In this document: in pieces, positions 1,296 to 32,737 of the stretch | How positions within the stretch are numbered: position 1 is the stretch's first letter | How the letters are laid out: every line of letters begins with the position of its first letter | IMG/VR virus record: IMGVR_UViG_3300009081_000009 | Coordinates: 100,709 to 164,708 of that record | DNA from: a virus | Length of the DNA stretch: 64,000 nucleotides | Direction: 5' to 3' (one strand) | Position numbers and translations under genes: made by a program | Notes under the pieces: generated by a model | What the model saw: only the letters and a program-made list of their open reading frames with translations | Told to the model about the DNA's origin: nothing | Databases searched by the model: none

Positions 1296-1299
1296 ATAG

Positions 1300-1399
1300 T
1301 GACGGAGGTGGGATTCGAACCAAATTCCCAAGGAGCGACCTCGGAATCACATCTTTCTGGATTAACTCCAGTTGCCTCTACCAATTGGGCTACACCGAC
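1300..1399 (-). ncRNA. atypical tRNA-like element (Leu-like D arm, loop agTTAat, very long variable region)
   Basis: D arm gtagcccaattggtagaggc, GTTCGAATCC, two acceptor mismatches, ~35 nt extra arm. Confidence 0.45.
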
Positions 1400-1406
1400 A
1401 TATTTA

Positions 1407-2143: not shown

Positions 2144-2241
2144 TTCCTGTTTTTCTATTGTTTTCTTCATGAATTAGATCCTTGTTAAAGTACCTAATTC
2201 TCCATCGATGTATACATCATTAATCCTTGTTAAATTGTTAG

Positions 2242-2324
2242 CAGAAGATGAGGGACTCGAACCCCCAAGCCCTTTCGGACGACTGTTTAGTAGACAGCTA
2301 CCTTACCAATTAGGTTAATCTTCC
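2242..2324 (-). tRNA. tRNA-Ser(ACT)
   Basis: gctgt-ctACTaa-acagt, long V arm, G73. Confidence 0.85.
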
Positions 2325-2518: not shown

Positions 2519-2601
2519 AATTAATAGAAGGCTTCGAACCTTCATGCTTTCGCTCCGGGTCGTATACAACCCAGTATGTCTGCCAGTTCCATCATATTAA
2601 T
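2519..2601 (-). ncRNA. atypical tRNA-like element with enlarged anticodon loop (ttGTAtacga, Tyr-like?)
   Basis: attaata/tattaat acceptor, D arm, ctggg/cccgg stem with 10-nt loop, V arm, GTTCGAAGC. Confidence 0.5.
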
Positions 2602-2699: not shown

Positions 2700-2783
2700 T
2701 GCCGAGAGAGAGACTTGAACTCTCACGTCCTTACGGACACTGGCTTCTTAGACCAGCGTGTCTACCAGTTCCACCATCACGGC
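2700..2783 (-). tRNA. tRNA-Leu(AAG)
   Basis: ctggt-ctAAGaa-gccag, V arm, A73. Confidence 0.9.
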
Positions 2784-3278: not shown

Positions 3279-3337
3279 ATAAAATACAACACCAGATTAA
3301 CAATCAGCGAACATCCGCTAGGGATAATTCTAAATAC

Positions 3338-3368
3338 AAAAAGGGCGAGAACCTTACGATCCTCGCCT
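3338..3368 (-). terminator. attenuator terminator of tRNA operon 1
   Basis: ggcgaggatc-gtaa-ggttctcgcc followed by cttttt. Confidence 0.85.
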
Positions 3369-3391
3369 ATAATGTAAACTTAACTATTAGT

Positions 3392-3466
3392 TTACATATA
3401 TCGAGGATATTCAGGGCTGGAGAGCCATGAACATAAACTTGATAGATGCAAACTGAGAGACTTCAT
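3392..3466 (-). CDS. putative leader peptide MKSLSLHLSSLCSWLSSPEYPRYM
   Basis: aaaggt SD; codons 3-17 all Ser/Leu/His/Cys/Trp, the amino acids of the downstream tRNAs. Confidence 0.85.
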   Translation of the reverse strand: MKSLSLHLSSLCSWLSSPEYPRYM

Positions 3467-3506
3467 TTTATTACCTTTAGTTAAGTAGTTTCGTTTCTTA
3501 CTATAC

Positions 3507-3535
3507 AATATAGATCATTTTCTTGCATTTGTCAA
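3507..3535 (-). promoter_or_regulatory. sigma70-type promoter of tRNA operon 1
   Basis: TTGACA-17nt-TATATT. Confidence 0.8.
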
Positions 3536-5374
3536 TAACTTTTTTATTTCATCCCGTCTTTCTTGTTTAGACAGTTGATTTGGACGTGGTATTTTTGCCT
3601 TATAGTCATTAGATTCTATAAAAACATCATTTTTAGATAGTAATTCATTGTATGGGTTAATAGAAGTCAATTTACCTATGTCAGGTCTGTCATTGATTCT
3701 ATGGGAGTATTTTTCCATTCGATGTCTAAGAAATTCTCTCATAGACATTCTTAATCTATTTTGTTCTAAATATCTAGGTTTGTCATCCAAGTACACTAAT
3801 GATAACTCGCCTTCAACGTAAGAACTTTTAGGAAATCCACCGCATGTTAAGCCACAATGATAAGCAACATCACCTAAATGCAAATCCTCCCATCCATATT
3901 CACCATCGAATAGATTATTAAATAGAGTATTATGATTTATTTTTGTTATTACTTGTACAGCTTCTCGTCTAATTGCAAATCCGCATGTCCATACATGAGA
4001 ATCAGCTAACCCATAATTTGGATTATATGTAAAATCATCTGAAAACCATTTACGTGGTTCAATTTCACCTTTTATTAATGTTATATCATATAGATGTAAA
4101 GCATTATATACAAGTTGTTCATTTATGTTTGATGGTATTCTATCTCCATCTAGAAATAATATATCAGAATATGGATCTGTGTGTTGTGCTCCTAAACTTC
4201 GTGCAGTACCAGCACAGAATCCGATCCCAATATCATTTTTTATATAATGTTCATTTAGGTCAGTTAATACAGATTCGCTATTATCCGTGCATCTATCTAA
4301 TACAAATATTCGTTTAAATGTAGGAAATGATTTCTTTAATGCATTTACCATTATATGTAATGTATTTTCTTGATTTTTGCTTATAATTACTATATTAATT
4401 GGTTTAATATCTGTTGAAGGTCTAATCCTCGATGTCATGAATGGTGCTTGTGGTGCATCTTGTTTTGTTATATGTATTTTAGGTGGCGTATACCACATAT
4501 ATTTATTCAATGGTGTTGTATTATCATCGGTTTGTGATAGTGATCTCGATTCACCTACATGAATGGCATCTGTGAAATTTTTAATGATTGATATTTTATT
4601 ATTTTTATAACAATGCAATATATAACCACGCATCAAATCAAAAAATATAGGATTATTATGAGATTTAAATGCTTTAGCTAATGTCATCACCCAACTTTTA
4701 TATTGAGTATATAAATTTTCATCGTATATTGAAGTAAATAATTCAGAATACATTTCATGTAATTCATCCAATGAATAGTCTTGTAATAATTTGTTTTTGT
4801 ATAAAATATTAGACTTATTTATACCATGAATCAACTCGTTTTTGGTGTAGTTAATATCATCAATATATGATATTCCGTATATATCATTTAGATCGGTAGT
4901 TATATTTAGATTTATACAAAATACACTGATATCTATATCGATTCCATTACTTCTAGTTATATCAGTAATTGCAATATCAGACTTATTAGCATAACATGCA
5001 TCGACTAATGATGTAACAAATGGCTTAGATATGATTACATCTTGTTCTATGTGAATCATGTAATCGTATCCAAGTTCTTTTAATGTTCTGTGTGCCATTG
5101 ATAATGCGGATGCGTGTTCTATATTTGGTTTTATAAATATATTAGTCGCATTTTTTATACTTATCTGATGTAGTAATCTTATATCAGTCATATCTAATAC
5201 ATTTTTTGAACTTCCATCGACATCCCACTTTTCCGAAAATGATGGATATGATATACTGTAAAATAAATCATATGTGTTTTCATGGGCATTAATTGTGTTA
5301 ATCCATGAATCAATCCATGTACCTTTGTTATTTGGTGTTACGTAAAATGGACAGAAAATTGCTACTTTTTTCAT
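3515..5374 (-). CDS. two-domain glycosyltransferase (GT-A/GT2-like)
   Basis: C-terminal VLDRCTDNS, FLDGD (DxD), YGWED motifs; N-terminal HIEQD. Confidence 0.7.
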   Translation of the reverse strand: MKKVAIFCPFYVTPNNKGTWIDSWINTINAHENTYDLFYSISYPSFSEKWDVDGSSKNVLDMTDIRLLHQISIKNATNIFIKPNIEHASALSMAHRTLKELGYDYMIHIEQDVIISKPFVTSLVDACYANKSDIAITDITRSNGIDIDISVFCINLNITTDLNDIYGISYIDDINYTKNELIHGINKSNILYKNKLLQDYSLDELHEMYSELFTSIYDENLYTQYKSWVMTLAKAFKSHNNPIFFDLMRGYILHCYKNNKISIIKNFTDAIHVGESRSLSQTDDNTTPLNKYMWYTPPKIHITKQDAPQAPFMTSRIRPSTDIKPINIVIISKNQENTLHIMVNALKKSFPTFKRIFVLDRCTDNSESVLTDLNEHYIKNDIGIGFCAGTARSLGAQHTDPYSDILFLDGDRIPSNINEQLVYNALHLYDITLIKGEIEPRKWFSDDFTYNPNYGLADSHVWTCGFAIRREAVQVITKINHNTLFNNLFDGEYGWEDLHLGDVAYHCGLTCGGFPKSSYVEGELSLVYLDDKPRYLEQNRLRMSMREFLRHRMEKYSHRINDRPDIGKLTSINPYNELLSKNDVFIESNDYKAKIPRPNQLSKQERRDEIKKLLTNARK

Positions 5375-5381
5375 TATATAC

Positions 5382-6422
5382 CTAAAAACTAAATTGAACT
5401 TGTTGTTTATATTTACTAGCTGTGCTTTTTGCTTTATTTAATTCATCTGTAAATGAATCATATAATGAAAATATAGGTAAGTGAACACCTAATTTGGTTA
5501 ATGATTCACCTCGTCCCCATTCTTTCATTCCCCAGAATTGAATTAAATCGAATTTATTTGCAAAAGCTAGATCAATGAAATCAGACATTTCATTGTAATT
5601 ATGCTTATTTACCGTATATGAAGTTATTAATTTCTTTATAACGTTATTGTCTCTTAATGTAGATATGAATTCTAAATTAGATAATAAAATATTGAAATCT
5701 CCACCTAATCTAATTTTATGATATGTATCTGGGTGTGCTGCGTCAATTGATATAGTCACAGTATCAATGAGACTTCTATTATTTGGATGAATTTCATTCC
5801 ATTTGGTTTCATTAAATAATATTCCATTACTTTGTAATTTGATTGATGTCAGGTTAGGACATAGTTCATGTAGATCACTTTTCAATAACCCAAAATAATA
5901 TTCACTCGCAAATGGATCTCCATCTCCAGATAAATACAATACACGAGCAATATCAAAATATGATTTTATCCTACTATGTTGCAGATCTATATACCGTACA
6001 TTATCATTTATAGGTTCTTTGCGACATGGGGTACAATGTAAATTACAAGTACGATCATATGAAAGTCCTAACGTAAGAATACCATTATTAAAATTTGTTT
6101 TCTCTGTAATCGATGTTATAATTGATTCAGCTATATCAACTGGATATGCGTTTTTTATTTCAACTAATGATTTCATTAGATATGAATTATCTGGATCTAA
6201 TCTATTAGGACAATTAGCTGAACAATATGAATACGAACCGTCTATAATAGATAATCGAAATTTATTCATAATATCAGAATGCCAATATGAACTGATACCA
6301 GAGATTGAACTTCTGACATCAGATCCATATTTAACTAGCCATGAGGAACAACATGGATATAAACCACCAACACCGCAATTAAGTTCAGTGAATGGCATCA
6401 TGCAATATTTGATTGCACTCAT
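5382..6422 (-). CDS. radical SAM protein with N-terminal SPASM-like Cys cluster
   Basis: CNLHCTPC motif, SGDGDPF, QSNG. Confidence 0.85.
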   Translation of the reverse strand: MSAIKYCMMPFTELNCGVGGLYPCCSSWLVKYGSDVRSSISGISSYWHSDIMNKFRLSIIDGSYSYCSANCPNRLDPDNSYLMKSLVEIKNAYPVDIAESIITSITEKTNFNNGILTLGLSYDRTCNLHCTPCRKEPINDNVRYIDLQHSRIKSYFDIARVLYLSGDGDPFASEYYFGLLKSDLHELCPNLTSIKLQSNGILFNETKWNEIHPNNRSLIDTVTISIDAAHPDTYHKIRLGGDFNILLSNLEFISTLRDNNVIKKLITSYTVNKHNYNEMSDFIDLAFANKFDLIQFWGMKEWGRGESLTKLGVHLPIFSLYDSFTDELNKAKSTASKYKQQVQFSF

Positions 6423-9882: not shown

Positions 9883-11598
9883 TTATCGTTTAAACATTAC
9901 AGCACCTGTCATACCAGAGTCATCATCCTCATCCTCATCATCGGATTGGTTGCGTTTTTTAGTATGATCTAGATATCTAGCGGAATCTTCGAGCGTTTTT
10001 AACTGCTTCTGTTTATTATCCATAGCTTCAAACGCCAATCGTTCCTCGTTGATTTGCTCTTCTGTTTTAAGGATGACATCATCTTCTTCTAATGATTTCA
10101 GATTCACTTCAACTACTTTACCATAATATAATGGAGATTGTAGATAAAATGGAACCCAATAGGCTGCTGTAATATGGTCATCATTATTACCACCCAAACC
10201 ACCCCAACGTTCTTGAGTAACTTTACCAAATGAATGCATCTCATTTATTGTCTGTCTATCTGGTATAGTCATAAACTTTCTTTGTACATATGTTTTAAAT
10301 AGAATACAGGCATTTTGCTTAGTTTTTTCAGATGCCCATAATCCCATATGATGACCCGATGGATCAAAATGCAATATATTTTCATATTCAACTTGATTAT
10401 AGAAGAATTTCATAGCAGCAATTCCGGGGCCGTTTTGTTCAATAATTAATGCAGGGTCATGATATTTTTTTAATATTACATAACATTTTTTACAAAACAA
10501 ATCAATATCCATTTTATTAGATGCAATAACAGCAACCTGATGCACTGTTATATTTGATTTTACTAAGAATATTTGTAAGACAGAATTATCTTGATGCACA
10601 CCATATCCAGAGTCTAATGATTCTACATATTCCCAACCTTCTGCCTCTAACTTTTCTTTTTTCAGTGGTGTTGAATAAATTCGTATGAAATCAGGTAAGT
10701 TAGCAATTTTCATTGGCTTCTTGCTTTCTAATGTTTTTAGGAAGTGATGGTCAATTAACGTAGATACGGAACCCACGAATTCACACATATATTCCTGATT
10801 GAATCTGATTTCACCAATTTTTTTCATTTCATCACGTGCCCATTCAGCAGTTCTACCCGGAACTGCATTCCATGGTATTTCACTGCGAATATAACCATTG
10901 GTGTCTTCTGCACTTATAGTACCAACATCTGATATATTACAAGCATCTTCCCACATTCTAAAGAAATGATTCATACCACATGGTGTTGATGTTATAATAA
11001 CTTTGGTTGTTTTACCTGATGAAATGGTAGGGAACACAGAAGCAATAAACTCATCTGCTATATGTGATTTAACGAATGCAAATTCGTCAAGATATAACAA
11101 GTTAATAGACATACCTCGAATACCATCAGGGGATGTAGCAGCACAAACGATTCGAGTTCCGTGTGAAAATTGTATGCCTCGTTTATTCCACTGTTTAACT
11201 CCCGGTTGCATCCAATATGGAAGGTTAATATATGAATCTCTTAACTGCTGTAATTGTTCCTGTGCTAGATTAAGTTTGTTTGCTAATATAGCTACTACTT
11301 TATCTTCATTAAATAATGCATACCACAATATAAATGCACGTGTAGTGGCTGATTTTCCTGCCTGACGTGGATATTTAACTATATTAAAACGGTTTTTATG
11401 AAATTCACCAATTAAATCTTCTTGGAAATTCCACATTTTAAATAATTGCATACCTTTATCTTTAGTATTGATATACACATAGTTTTTTATGAAATATATA
11501 GGATCTCTTGCACATTTAGCAAGTTCCTTAAACATCCAAGGCTCCATCTGAACCGATTCATTACCATCTCTTAAATTATTAATTCCATTAAATGCCAT
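9883..11598 (-). CDS. terminase large subunit (T4 gp17-like)
   Basis: PRQAGKS Walker A, LLYLDEFAFV Walker B, TSTP, FNQEY, nuclease DSGYG/IEQN/NDD. Confidence 0.95.
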   Translation of the reverse strand: MAFNGINNLRDGNESVQMEPWMFKELAKCARDPIYFIKNYVYINTKDKGMQLFKMWNFQEDLIGEFHKNRFNIVKYPRQAGKSATTRAFILWYALFNEDKVVAILANKLNLAQEQLQQLRDSYINLPYWMQPGVKQWNKRGIQFSHGTRIVCAATSPDGIRGMSINLLYLDEFAFVKSHIADEFIASVFPTISSGKTTKVIITSTPCGMNHFFRMWEDACNISDVGTISAEDTNGYIRSEIPWNAVPGRTAEWARDEMKKIGEIRFNQEYMCEFVGSVSTLIDHHFLKTLESKKPMKIANLPDFIRIYSTPLKKEKLEAEGWEYVESLDSGYGVHQDNSVLQIFLVKSNITVHQVAVIASNKMDIDLFCKKCYVILKKYHDPALIIEQNGPGIAAMKFFYNQVEYENILHFDPSGHHMGLWASEKTKQNACILFKTYVQRKFMTIPDRQTINEMHSFGKVTQERWGGLGGNNDDHITAAYWVPFYLQSPLYYGKVVEVNLKSLEEDDVILKTEEQINEERLAFEAMDNKQKQLKTLEDSARYLDHTKKRNQSDDEDEDDDSGMTGAVMFKR

Positions 11599-12292
11599 TT
11601 TCTACCCCCTCTGGGCATGGATATACATATTCACGTTTACCATGTTTAATAAACATGCTATCTGGATCATTCCATATATCATCAAATTTTGAATGTAAAT
11701 ATGGATATGACTCAATTATTATTTTGGTATTGAGTCTGTGTGCCATTGTTGGAAATATACCTGCAATGAACTCATATAATATATCATCACCCATAAAGGA
11801 TGCACCATGCATATATAACTGATCAATACCCATCCCTTTAATACTACATGGACTGCATCTATTAAATATAATATGGTTATTATTTGATAAAAGAATAACC
11901 TGCTTGTTACATCTAAGGACTGCGCATTGTAACCAAATAGGCAATGATTCATAATATCCAATCAGTCGAGTTCTATATACATCTGATTGCTTACGTGTTG
12001 GTGTTAATATAACGCAAACTTTATCTTGTTGTTTAAATAACAACTTCCATAATAGATGCGTATGTAATAACATCGTGTTATTTGTTTTTGCTTTGGATGC
12101 TATTATATTATATCGATTCTCATTTATCGAGTTTATAAACAATAAATCAGATTCGGTTAATTCGATATGCAAATACATAGACATGAAATATTCATATGAA
12201 TTTATGCATTTAATTATTTCATCAATCTGATACTTAGTTAAAGTGATATTATCAGATTCACTTCGCATGTTTGGATGCTCATTAATTGGCAT
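11588..12292 (-). CDS. degenerate terminase ATPase-domain paralogue
   Basis: Similar to gp17 N-domain (YESLPIWLQ, SIKGMGIDQLYM, GIFPT) but Walker A/B residues lost. Confidence 0.65.
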   Translation of the reverse strand: MPINEHPNMRSESDNITLTKYQIDEIIKCINSYEYFMSMYLHIELTESDLLFINSINENRYNIIASKAKTNNTMLLHTHLLWKLLFKQQDKVCVILTPTRKQSDVYRTRLIGYYESLPIWLQCAVLRCNKQVILLSNNNHIIFNRCSPCSIKGMGIDQLYMHGASFMGDDILYEFIAGIFPTMAHRLNTKIIIESYPYLHSKFDDIWNDPDSMFIKHGKREYVYPCPEGVENGI

Positions 12293-13247
12293 ATAAATCT
12301 CCCTTCATACCTTCGTAGAATGAACATTCATATTCCTGTAAGAATCTCTCTAAGCCCATTACTTGTATTGATTGACGTTTCCATTCGCTATCTCTTCCCG
12401 GTATTAATGTCCATGGAATTTTAATTGCGTGATAACCATTGAAATTAGTTATAGCATCTGCCCATAATTTAAAGAAATAATTAATACCATTCGGGGTTGA
12501 TGATATTATTAATTTTAAATTAGGATTATTCTCAGATATCTTATCTATTATTTTCATGAATTCATACACATTTGCTACTGGTGCATATGCAAATTCATCC
12601 AGAAATACGAAATCGAAATCAATCATTTTTATAGAATCTGGTGATGCAATTGTGTTAGCATATATTCTAGATCCATTTGAAAATTCTATATATCTCTTAT
12701 TATTTGATAAGCATCTGAATTTATCTTTGATATACGATGGTAAATGCTGATGCATTTTCTCTATTTTAAATAACAACTCAATGGATGCTGCTAATTTATG
12801 CGATGCTAATAGTGTATTTGTGTTTGGATGGGTTAAACAATAATGCAATATGTAGGCGCATAATATAGTTGAAATCCCAGCCTGTCTAGATCCATTTATT
12901 ATTAACTTGTTGTAATTTTCCAACTTAAATGTCAATTGTTTCTGAAATTCATATAATCTCAATGGTTGCAGTCCACAATCCTTAGTTATTATACTAACAG
13001 CATTCTCCATGAAATGTTCTGGGTTATTTATACATTTTTGTAAATCCGAGTTATTATCGGTTTTCACTTGTTCATCTTGTGATAACTCCAATCCTTCAAC
13101 AAAGTCAGCTATATCACTTGAATGATCCTCTGCGAATTGTTCGATTGCTTGTCGTATTATTTCAGATCGATTGACTTGGAATATCTCAGACAGCGAATCG
13201 ATTTGTTTATCGGTATCCTCTGTGATGTATATATTTATTCTTTTCAT
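12282..13247 (-). CDS. ribbon-helix-helix domain fused to terminase ATPase domain
   Basis: MKRINIYI...NRSEIIRQAI (RHH); SRQAGIS, FLDEFAY, SSTPNG, FLQEYEC. Confidence 0.8.
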   Translation of the reverse strand: MKRINIYITEDTDKQIDSLSEIFQVNRSEIIRQAIEQFAEDHSSDIADFVEGLELSQDEQVKTDNNSDLQKCINNPEHFMENAVSIITKDCGLQPLRLYEFQKQLTFKLENYNKLIINGSRQAGISTILCAYILHYCLTHPNTNTLLASHKLAASIELLFKIEKMHQHLPSYIKDKFRCLSNNKRYIEFSNGSRIYANTIASPDSIKMIDFDFVFLDEFAYAPVANVYEFMKIIDKISENNPNLKLIISSTPNGINYFFKLWADAITNFNGYHAIKIPWTLIPGRDSEWKRQSIQVMGLERFLQEYECSFYEGMKGDLYAN

Positions 13248-16129: not shown

Positions 16130-17027
16130 GATTATAGTTCTTAAAGATCCTGTTATTAATGATCCATTTTCTAAAATTAATAATTTTACATATGAATGGA
16201 TTAAATGGTTTCCTTATGTAAAAATTGCTCCTGTGAATTATTCATTTTCCAATGATGATGTGATAGTAGTAAATATATGCGATGCACCAGATCCATGTGC
16301 TCATTATAACATTAATCCGAAATGTAGTAAAATCGGCATTGTTCATAAAATAAATGAACAGAACCTAAAAATAATGAATGTATGTACGTATTTAATTTAT
16401 TTAAGTCCGGTGATAGAATCAATTGCTACCATGGCAGGTATTCAGAAACCACATCACACATGTCCTAGATATCCATTATATGATTTTAATGGAACTGAGG
16501 TAACTCCCGTTGATTTCGCATATTTTGGTGGTTGGTTCAATGACACTGAATATGATGAGATTCATGATCATATAGTTAAATTAGATTCAAAGATTCCAAA
16601 GAAAATTATTTTTAATATAGCATATACATGGGGAAATTCAGATGCTAGATTTAAAAAAATCAAATCTATTCTGGATACCGTAATAACAAAAAAAGAAATA
16701 AATAATAGACATATAATAGCACAAGACACACCAATGTCATTCCCTGTAATGCTATTTAAAACAAGAATTTCAAGTTATGGTGCATTGTATTCTAATTTAC
16801 CTTCGATAGAAGAAACCCAAGATTTAATAAGTTCTAAGGATCTTAGCATATTAAATTATTCTATTGGTGAAAGTTCGATGTTGGCTGCTATGCAATCAAG
16901 CCATACTAATATTATATGTGATGATCATATTGATTTCATTTCATATTATAATGAAACACCCAAGTATACATATACAGATTTCGCAAAAGATTTTACATAT
17001 ATATCTAAAAAATATTTACTCAATTAA
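16122..17027 (+). CDS. hypothetical protein
   Basis: 301 aa ORF overlapping previous stop. Confidence 0.7.
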   Translation: MGEIIVLKDPVINDPFSKINNFTYEWIKWFPYVKIAPVNYSFSNDDVIVVNICDAPDPCAHYNINPKCSKIGIVHKINEQNLKIMNVCTYLIYLSPVIESIATMAGIQKPHHTCPRYPLYDFNGTEVTPVDFAYFGGWFNDTEYDEIHDHIVKLDSKIPKKIIFNIAYTWGNSDARFKKIKSILDTVITKKEINNRHIIAQDTPMSFPVMLFKTRISSYGALYSNLPSIEETQDLISSKDLSILNYSIGESSMLAAMQSSHTNIICDDHIDFISYYNETPKYTYTDFAKDFTYISKKYLLN

Positions 17028-30498: not shown

Positions 30499-30527
30499 TT
30501 GACAAATGGTGAAAAATAACCTATATT
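30499..30527 (+). promoter_or_regulatory. sigma70-type promoter of largest tRNA operon
   Basis: TTGACA-17nt-TATATT. Confidence 0.8.
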
Positions 30528-30568
30528 GTATTTATAAGAGAAACGAAACACTTTAAAAAGGATTAGTC

Positions 30569-30655
30569 ATGCAAGTCACAACCATTACCACAGCCGATAC
30601 AGCAGCGATCATTGATCGCGGTACAATCGCAATGGGTACAGGAGTACATGCATAG
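30569..30655 (+). CDS. putative leader peptide MQVTTITTADTAAIIDRGTIAMGTGVHA
   Basis: aagga SD; 26 of 28 residues are T/A/I/G/V/D/M/R, the downstream tRNA set. Confidence 0.88.
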   Translation: MQVTTITTADTAAIIDRGTIAMGTGVHA

Positions 30656-30680
30656 CGGGGTCGTCTTATAATAGAGACAC

Positions 30681-30714
30681 AAACCCCGCAGGAAACTGTG
30701 GGGTTTTTCTTTTT
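30681..30714 (+). terminator. attenuator terminator (Ala/Gly/Met/Thr/Ile/Arg/Val/Asp group)
   Basis: aaaccccgcag-gaaa-ctgtggggttt-ttcttttt. Confidence 0.9.
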
Positions 30715-30765
30715 GTATAGCAAATGGAGTCGTAGTCCCTGTTGGTAGCCCAACAACTACAATAT

Positions 30766-32437: not shown

Positions 32438-32737
32438 ATGCGTAAAACTAAAAAAGGATTTAATATTGTTGCTGTAACACCCGAAGGTGTTGACGTAGTT
32501 GATGGTGTGTTTAGAGTTTTTGATAGTCTAGGAATGCCATTGGATGAAATTTTTAATCAATGCAAGCAGCGAAACTTAATGCCTTCATGGACGCATTTCT
32601 ATGATGATGCTAGAATACAAGGATGGAGTCATGAAACTATTATGAATAGATTAGAGACAACCATTCCTGATATATATGGTAAAGAATTTTCGGATGCTGT
32701 CATGTATAGATTACAAATTTATTCCGAATTGTGTTAA
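32438..32737 (+). CDS. hypothetical protein with AlaRS-like motif
   Basis: aagga SD; GVFRVFDSLGMPLD resembles AlaRS AFKLYDTYGFPLD. Confidence 0.6.
   Translation: MRKTKKGFNIVAVTPEGVDVVDGVFRVFDSLGMPLDEIFNQCKQRNLMPSWTHFYDDARIQGWSHETIMNRLETTIPDIYGKEFSDAVMYRLQIYSELC

Follow-up and report, generated by a model that had tools for sequence, protein, structure and literature searches.

Why would a phage place a promoter, a short reading frame and an intrinsic terminator directly ahead of a block of tRNA genes? The question is raised by a locus on the minus strand of the window, by which we mean the whole 64,000-nt stretch of DNA analyzed here, which makes up the final 64 kb of a 164,708-bp IMG/VR virus record. 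The record, which belongs to a giant uncultured phage, has a completeness of 39% (CheckV), and its DNA is present in freshwater-sediment metagenomes. It encodes a T4-type large terminase with 36% identity to cyanomyovirus terminases, and also codes for a sigma-70-family protein, a ribonucleotide reductase and a PARP-like protein. The cyanomyoviruses, at this same 36% identity, are distant cultured relatives that were reached through the terminase only: a blastn search of positions 3300-5400 against cultured phages gave no match, and no relatives were found when the 619-aa glycosyltransferase-like protein encoded upstream of the locus was used as the query. The record carries 57 tRNA genes organized in five arrays, which jointly cover all 20 amino acids, and for every amino acid except Met and Arg the tRNAs are confined to a single array.

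The leader and its tRNA array

The locus begins with a promoter whose -35 hexamer TTGACA (3535-3530, minus strand), read directly from the sequence, is separated by a 17-nt spacer from the -10 hexamer TATATT (3512-3507, minus strand). In a promoter scan this TTGACA-17-TATATT arrangement scores 11/12, and the same extended promoter box is also found ahead of the other tRNA leaders. The putative transcription start lies near 3502-3499 on the minus strand. Further downstream, a Shine-Dalgarno-like AAAGG (3478-3474) stands seven nt before an ATG at 3466, and homologues have purine-rich motifs at the equivalent position. This ATG opens a leader ORF of 24 codons plus TAA (ORF 3466-3392, stop codon 3394-3392), in which codons 3-17 (3460-3416) form an uninterrupted control run of 7 Ser, 5 Leu, 1 His, 1 Cys and 1 Trp codons. 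Between the ORF and the first tRNA gene lies an intrinsic terminator (3367-3338), consisting of a 10-bp stem (3367-3358 paired with 3353-3344) followed by a C and TTTTT (3342-3338). A preliminary description of this DNA had reported a promoter, a Shine-Dalgarno sequence, an ORF, a terminator and a complementarity between the leader and the terminator, and we recovered each of these on the minus strand where it had been placed, base for base.

At the sequence level, therefore, the locus has the short ORF with a ribosome-binding site and start codon that a leader-peptide attenuator calls for, and the 15 Ser/Leu/His/Cys/Trp codons of its run are cognate to the genes that would be regulated. The preliminary description had judged a run of this length to be beyond chance, and our counts bear this out: across the six frames of the 164,708-bp record it is the longest run of these residues, the next longest being 11, and from their six-frame frequency of 0.260 only 4.2e-4 runs of at least 15 are expected in the record. 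Two further arguments drawn from the run carry less. It was said to sample many synonymous codons, and it does contain 12 distinct codons, but the 9.8 +/- 1.1 expected from phage codon usage makes this excess only marginal (P = 0.058). It was also said that every codon in the run has a reader downstream, which is true but deserves little weight, as no Ser or Leu codon box is left uncovered by the array and such a match is nearly automatic. Since His, Cys and Trp are each sampled by a single codon, sensitivity to these three amino acids would be weak.

The array itself comprises 16 tRNA genes (3278-1140, minus strand; ARAGORN, with Rfam tRNA matches) and starts 60 nt past the terminator. It contains five Leu, five Ser, two His, two Cys and one Trp tRNA together with one odd tRNA, and apart from the last its anticodons are CAA, CGA, TAA (twice), TGA, AAG, TAG, CCA, ACT, GCA (twice), GTG (twice), GCT and GGA. 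The promoter scan found no promoter-like site between the terminator (3338) and the first tRNA (3278), so that the promoter is followed by the leader with no other promoter intervening before the genes, as in known leader-peptide attenuators. Within the array, just before the fourth tRNA, there is a promoter-like site, TTGACT-16-TATATT (3005-2978, minus strand), with no leader after it, which may transcribe 13 of the 16 tRNA genes constitutively and so bypass the attenuator. Among the relatives described below, L012 has an equivalent promoter-like site at 19121, and the arrays of L006 and L013 have none. At the same array spot in L012 (18600-19160) we observed an HNH-endonuclease-like ORF followed by the promoter-like site, and the site at 3005-2978 may be the remnant of a mobile insertion.

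Several members of the array are unusual in their own right. The odd tRNA (2519-2601, minus strand) is class-II-like and 83 nt long. Its anticodon loop has 8 nt, where ARAGORN read 'tata' and left Ile and Tyr undecided; its acceptor stem is all A/T, and the Rfam tRNA model did not report it at E <=1. This tRNA may read quadruplets, or it may have decayed. Both tRNA-Ser(ACT) (2241-2324, minus strand) and tRNA-Leu(AAG) (2700-2783, minus strand) have A as their wobble base, an uncommon situation in bacteria. Anticodons starting with A are reportedly the subject of a preprint (10.64898/2026.05.15.725136). Finally, a 110-nt gap in the array (1296-1405, minus strand) holds a weak tRNA-like sequence, detected by ARAGORN at a relaxed threshold only, that is probably a decayed tRNA.

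Alternative helices in the leader RNA

Three segments of the minus-strand transcript are involved in the predicted switch. Region 1 (3454-3438) lies inside the control run. Region 2 (3408-3390) consists of ATCCTCG (3408-3402, codons 20-22) and ATGTAAAC (3397-3390), the latter spanning the leader stop codon. Region 3 (3379-3359) consists of GTTTACAT (3379-3372) and CGAGGAT (3365-3359), the latter lying in the 5' arm of the terminator. The two halves of region 2 are complementary to the two halves of region 3, ATCCTCG to CGAGGAT and ATGTAAAC to GTTTACAT, so that in the RNA the partner of ATGTAAAC reads GUUUACAU.

When the free leader is folded, the minimum-energy structure has -50.9 kcal/mol (z = -6.0 against shuffled controls) and consists of a helix between regions 1 and 2 together with the terminator, whose hairpin (3367-3344) closes on a GUAA loop at -16.0 kcal/mol. 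In this fold the 1:2 helix sequesters region 2 when no ribosome is present, as in the classical attenuators. This predicted helix is an addition to the account given in the preliminary description. A 1:2 pairing of the form GUUUAC:GUAAAC is also possible in L006 and L012 (alignment A1, judged by eye, with little variation on which covariation could act).

To represent a translating ribosome, we masked the RNA to 12 nt past the A site and folded only the sequence that precedes the 3' arm of the terminator. Under this ribosome-mask model the predicted fold is an antiterminator of -19.5 kcal/mol in which ATGTAAAC pairs with GUUUACAU (3379-3372), stacked on ATCCTCG paired with CGAGGAU (3365-3359). 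It thus contains both the ATCCTCG/CGAGGAT pairing and the extension proposed in the preliminary description, and it occupies 7 of the 10 nt of the terminator's 5' arm. The energy gained by the 2:3 helix exceeds that of dinucleotide shuffles of region 2 (p = 0.02 for the Ser/Leu/His/Cys/Trp unit). In the model the antiterminator, which reaches from the end of the ORF to the 5' arm, is complete for A-site positions from codon 1 to codon 16 and only partial for codon 17; with the A site anywhere between codon 18 and the stop it no longer forms. The permissive window and the cognate run thus end together. A ribosome at the stop had been proposed to mask the ATCCTCG segment, and this is what the model returns; a stall at codons 3-14 had been proposed to leave the pairing free, and the model permits this but over a wider range, from codon 1 to codon 16. 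A stall at the two TAT codons in the leader tail would mask region 2 in the model, which makes it improbable that these codons sense the odd tRNA (2519-2601).

At equilibrium, the terminator is kept in the minimum-energy fold under every masked state. Since equilibrium folding favours the terminator throughout and gives no switch, any switch has to be a kinetic one, and we took the fold that exists before the 3' arm as the basis for the analysis. Kinetic switching is accepted for the trp attenuator, and it is by analogy with that system that the leader of the Ser/Leu/His/Cys/Trp unit must be supposed to switch kinetically as well.

Relatives and sister units

Relatives of the phage were identified by terminase synteny, with protein identities of 68-76%, and have a homologous leader ahead of an array with the same five isotypes. 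Homologues of the leader ORF occur in L006, L007, L012, L013, L043 and L047. Among relatives, the codons of the core SLHLSSLC differ at third positions only, all of the differences being synonymous. Outside the core, the order of residues varies among lineages and membership in the Ser/Leu/Trp set is retained. L043 and L047 were recovered from metagenomes by a degenerate-codon search whose pattern already imposes the core peptide; having been selected in this way, they add nothing on core conservation. A third match from the metagenome pattern scan, L045, was rejected as a chance match with no ORF, and an exact-pattern scan of viral contigs revealed no relatives beyond those already found. The same constraint on the reading frame is seen at closer range in a peat-metagenome contig about 88% identical over 3366-3700, in which the ORF has two changes, both synonymous (AAG to AAA and CTC to CTG), as against 29 or more in the neighbouring 186 nt of the protein gene upstream. 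In L006, L007 and L008, the terminase match extends over about 2.4 kb (10001-12482) for a 571-aa query, which suggests that the terminase gene of these phages carries an insertion (an intron, an intein or a homing element).

The helices vary in a correlated manner. For the terminator, 5 of the 11 pairs in the consensus fold show compensatory changes. For the antiterminator, 89.8% of cells are paired in alignment A2, as against 43-55% when the partner is slid, and three pairs are changed on both sides in a single register across three lineages; the covariation score was matched by 8 of 500 shuffles in a set of six sequences that represent about three lineages. These compensatory changes lend further support to the 2:3 pairing. 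Where lineages differ in the 5' arm, the 3' arm and region 2 both carry the matching change, as two mutually exclusive helices would predict.

The Ser/Leu/His/Cys/Trp unit is one of eight modules that jointly cover all 20 amino acids. An Asn/Arg unit (23033-23213, plus strand) has a promoter, a 24-codon leader (23086-23160) with four Asn codons and an AGA, and a terminator (23186-23213), and stands ahead of three tRNA-Asn and a tRNA-Arg(TCT). A Glu unit (23590-23698, plus strand) has a Glu-rich leader of 16 codons (23590-23640) and a terminator (23673-23698) before four tRNA-Glu. The unit of the Ala/Gly/Met/Thr/Ile/Arg/Val/Asp array (30499-30715, plus strand) has a promoter, a 28-codon leader (30569-30655) and a terminator (30681-30706), and 25 of the 27 residues in its leader are cognate to its array. 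Outside the window, a Tyr/Phe/Lys-rich, a Lys/Gln-rich and a six-Gln leader precede tRNAs in the order Tyr-Met-Tyr-Phe-Phe, three tRNA-Lys and three tRNA-Gln, respectively. The remaining unit is a variant (20028-20150, plus strand) in which a promoter is followed by a 28-codon ORF (20064-20150), probably leaderless, before two tRNA-Pro. This Pro unit has no terminator, and it has a Pro-Pro near the end of the ORF that is conserved in L031 and L034. The codons of this Pro-Pro track the anticodons, with CCA CCG accompanying a pair of UGG tRNAs and CCG CCC accompanying a GGG tRNA, and the mechanism of the Pro unit may differ from that of the terminator-bearing units.

Taken across the genome, the match between leaders and tRNAs is specific. 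When the composition of the eight leaders was compared with that of the eight tRNA blocks, the true pairing was the single best of the 40,320 permutations. A region-2 segment that can pair with the 5' arm is present in each of the seven units with a terminator (Fisher-combined p = 9e-6); the Glu unit has it ~18-27 nt upstream of the stop, and in the other six it lies no more than ~15 nt from the stop. In the ribosome-mask model, cognate codons fall inside the antitermination-permissive window in 20 of 20 units from the genome and its relatives. In L026, where the array also holds Asn, Glu, Asp and Pro tRNAs, the leader includes those residues too. Finally, a hairpin of -13 kcal/mol or lower is found within 260 nt of the promoter box at five of the seven tRNA-adjacent boxes in the record, compared with none of the 12 others. 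The attenuator reading put forward in the preliminary description is thus supported by the predicted fold, by the compensatory changes, by conservation at the codon level, and by the recurrence of the arrangement, with matched leaders, before other tRNA blocks.

The arrays also contain genes of other kinds. Three phages share, within their tRNA arrays, a conserved 99-aa ORF that has no Pfam match; it lies at 32438-32737 (plus strand) in the window, at about 9180-9478 in L025 and at about 15780-16050 in L026, and a Pfam search of small ORFs inside the arrays gave nothing above the cut-off. Directly after the Glu tRNAs, a PARP-like protein with WGR, PARP regulatory and PARP catalytic domains is encoded at 24443-25798 (plus strand) behind a promoter box of its own. 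In L026, a contig classed as a provirus by IMG/VR, a tmRNA gene (16412-16764) lies inside the tRNA array.

Proposed mechanism, its alternatives and known systems

We consider it very probable that 3535-3338 (minus strand) is a ribosome-mediated, trp-type transcription attenuator that gates the Leu/Ser/His/Cys/Trp tRNA array; the phage thus probably makes these tRNAs only when ribosomes decode the corresponding codons slowly. What the sequences show directly is the anatomy of the locus, with its statistics, conservation and covariation, whereas we infer translation of the leader ORF, ribosome stalling, the kinetic switch and the physiological signal. RNA polymerase would start near 3500 at the sigma-70-type promoter, and a ribosome would enter the 24-codon leader. 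If an aminoacyl-tRNA is scarce, slow decoding at any of codons 3-16 would stall the ribosome on region 1 and leave region 2 free, allowing ATCCTCG and ATGTAAAC to pair with CGAGGAU and GUUUACAU of region 3 before the 3' arm of the terminator is transcribed. The antiterminator would then block the terminator, and the polymerase would continue into the tRNA genes. If decoding is fast, the ribosome would reach the stop and cover region 2, such that the terminator forms and transcription ends at 3343-3338. If there is no translation, region 1 would pair with region 2 and the terminator would again form. Working in this manner, the unit would monitor decoding capacity for five amino acids through an OR gate with negative feedback, and it would be self-limiting because read-through yields the very tRNAs that the leader tests.

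The same attenuator could have amino-acid starvation, i.e. low charging, as its natural signal, in which case tRNA synthesis would be tied to host nutrition. The anatomy is identical to that of amino-acid operon attenuators, and a stalled ribosome cannot distinguish an uncharged tRNA from a missing one, as is established for the trp and his attenuators. We nevertheless regard this signal as unlikely. Surplus tRNA brings no relief from amino-acid starvation, so the feedback would not close, and in all eight modules the regulated genes are exactly the tRNAs being tested. In addition, the pressures documented for phages, namely host anticodon nucleases, retron effectors and PARIS, hit the tRNA molecules themselves (PMC10264068, PMC11555353, PMC11464382). 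Because the feedback closes only when tRNA supply is the quantity being sensed, and because tRNA-targeting defences are a documented pressure on phages, we favour tRNA supply over charging as the natural trigger. It is possible, and we suggest it tentatively, that the eight stalling sensors together form a tRNA-supply homeostat for all 20 amino acids, which would selectively replace host tRNAs lost during infection, whether to anticodon nucleases, to host shut-off or in some other manner. If so, the leaders would be sensing tRNA-targeting immunity rather than nutrition.

A reading without attenuation would take the promoter, ORF and terminator as a separate gene for a Ser/Leu-rich peptide of 24 residues, with the tRNAs transcribed from other promoters. 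The conserved peptide core and the internal promoter-like site at 3005-2978 are what such a gene would lead one to expect, yet there is no promoter-like site before the first three tRNAs and none inside the L006 and L013 arrays. Complementarity and covariation link the last part of the ORF to the 5' arm of the terminator, and the set of residues is kept while their order changes between lineages. Moreover, eight unrelated peptides would have to mirror their neighbouring tRNA blocks by chance, at 1/40,320. We judge a separate peptide gene to be very improbable. The same can be said of the proposal that the terminator is a constitutive leaky stop damping a strong promoter, with the ORF and the complementarity being fortuitous. 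That the terminator is thermodynamically favoured in every modelled state is in keeping with such a stop, but 4e-4 codon runs of this kind are expected in the whole record, the core codons vary synonymously only, the 2:3 helix shows compensatory changes, and in 20 units the cognate codons match the extent of the permissive window. Finally, a translation-independent RNA switch, T-box-like or opened by a protein, that reads a tRNA or another ligand directly would share the terminator/antiterminator architecture and the link to tRNA, but it is the least credible of the alternatives, given that no Rfam family matches 3338-3535 at E <=1, T-box included, that no specifier-like or T-box-like motif is conserved, and that what is conserved is a reading frame varying at third positions.

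The attenuator reading bears on why phages carry tRNA genes, a debate that has set codon compensation against the replacement of degraded or cleaved host tRNAs for decades. A codon-matched attenuator before each tRNA block would imply that tRNAs are synthesized on demand when their cognate codons are decoded slowly, and would therefore support models of supply or replacement. It would also extend classical attenuation to a case in which the regulated product is the molecule being sensed, with one leader serving five amino acids, and the 200-nt cassette could be used as a natural means of sensing how well particular codons are decoded.

Large tRNA arrays as such are shared with T4-like and other large phages, and phage tRNAs are thought to offset the loss or cleavage of host tRNAs (PMC10264068, PMC11555353, PMC11464382). 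A term search of the text of PMC10264068 found no mention of an attenuator, leader, promoter or terminator and no codon-sensing control of phage tRNA transcription, and full-text literature searches for tRNA genes under leader-peptide control came up empty for phages and bacteria alike. As in T-box riboswitches, the decision between terminator and antiterminator would depend on tRNA status. However, T-box riboswitches bind uncharged tRNA directly without translation, whereas the conserved element of the phage unit is an ORF, and a search of Rfam over 1-34000 at E <=1 returned tRNAs and weak chance matches only, with no T-box and no amino-acid operon leader. A nearer parallel is the pheM leader of pheST, a leader-peptide attenuator over a component of the decoding machinery rather than over biosynthesis. 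The pheM leader senses one amino acid and acts on a synthetase protein, whereas the targets of the phage unit are tRNAs.

The likeness is greatest to the enterobacterial amino-acid leaders, and each feature by which leader-peptide attenuators are defined at the sequence level is present in the phage unit. In common with trpL, hisL, leuL, thrL and the ilvGMEDA leader, the phage unit has a short ORF close to the promoter that contains a run of regulatory codons, and it shares with them the alternative 1:2, 2:3 and 3:4 helices and a terminator before the first regulated gene. The sensing of several amino acids by one leader also has precedent, in the ilv and thr leaders. The mechanism is in this sense classical, trp-type attenuation, and it is the tRNA target, the phage setting and the feedback in which the product is itself sensed that are apparently undescribed. 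Unlike the enterobacterial leaders, which control enzymes, the phage leader would control the genes for the sensed molecule itself; its run reads five amino acids through 12 codon types; and it is encoded by a phage, as one of eight modules among which all 20 amino acids are partitioned.
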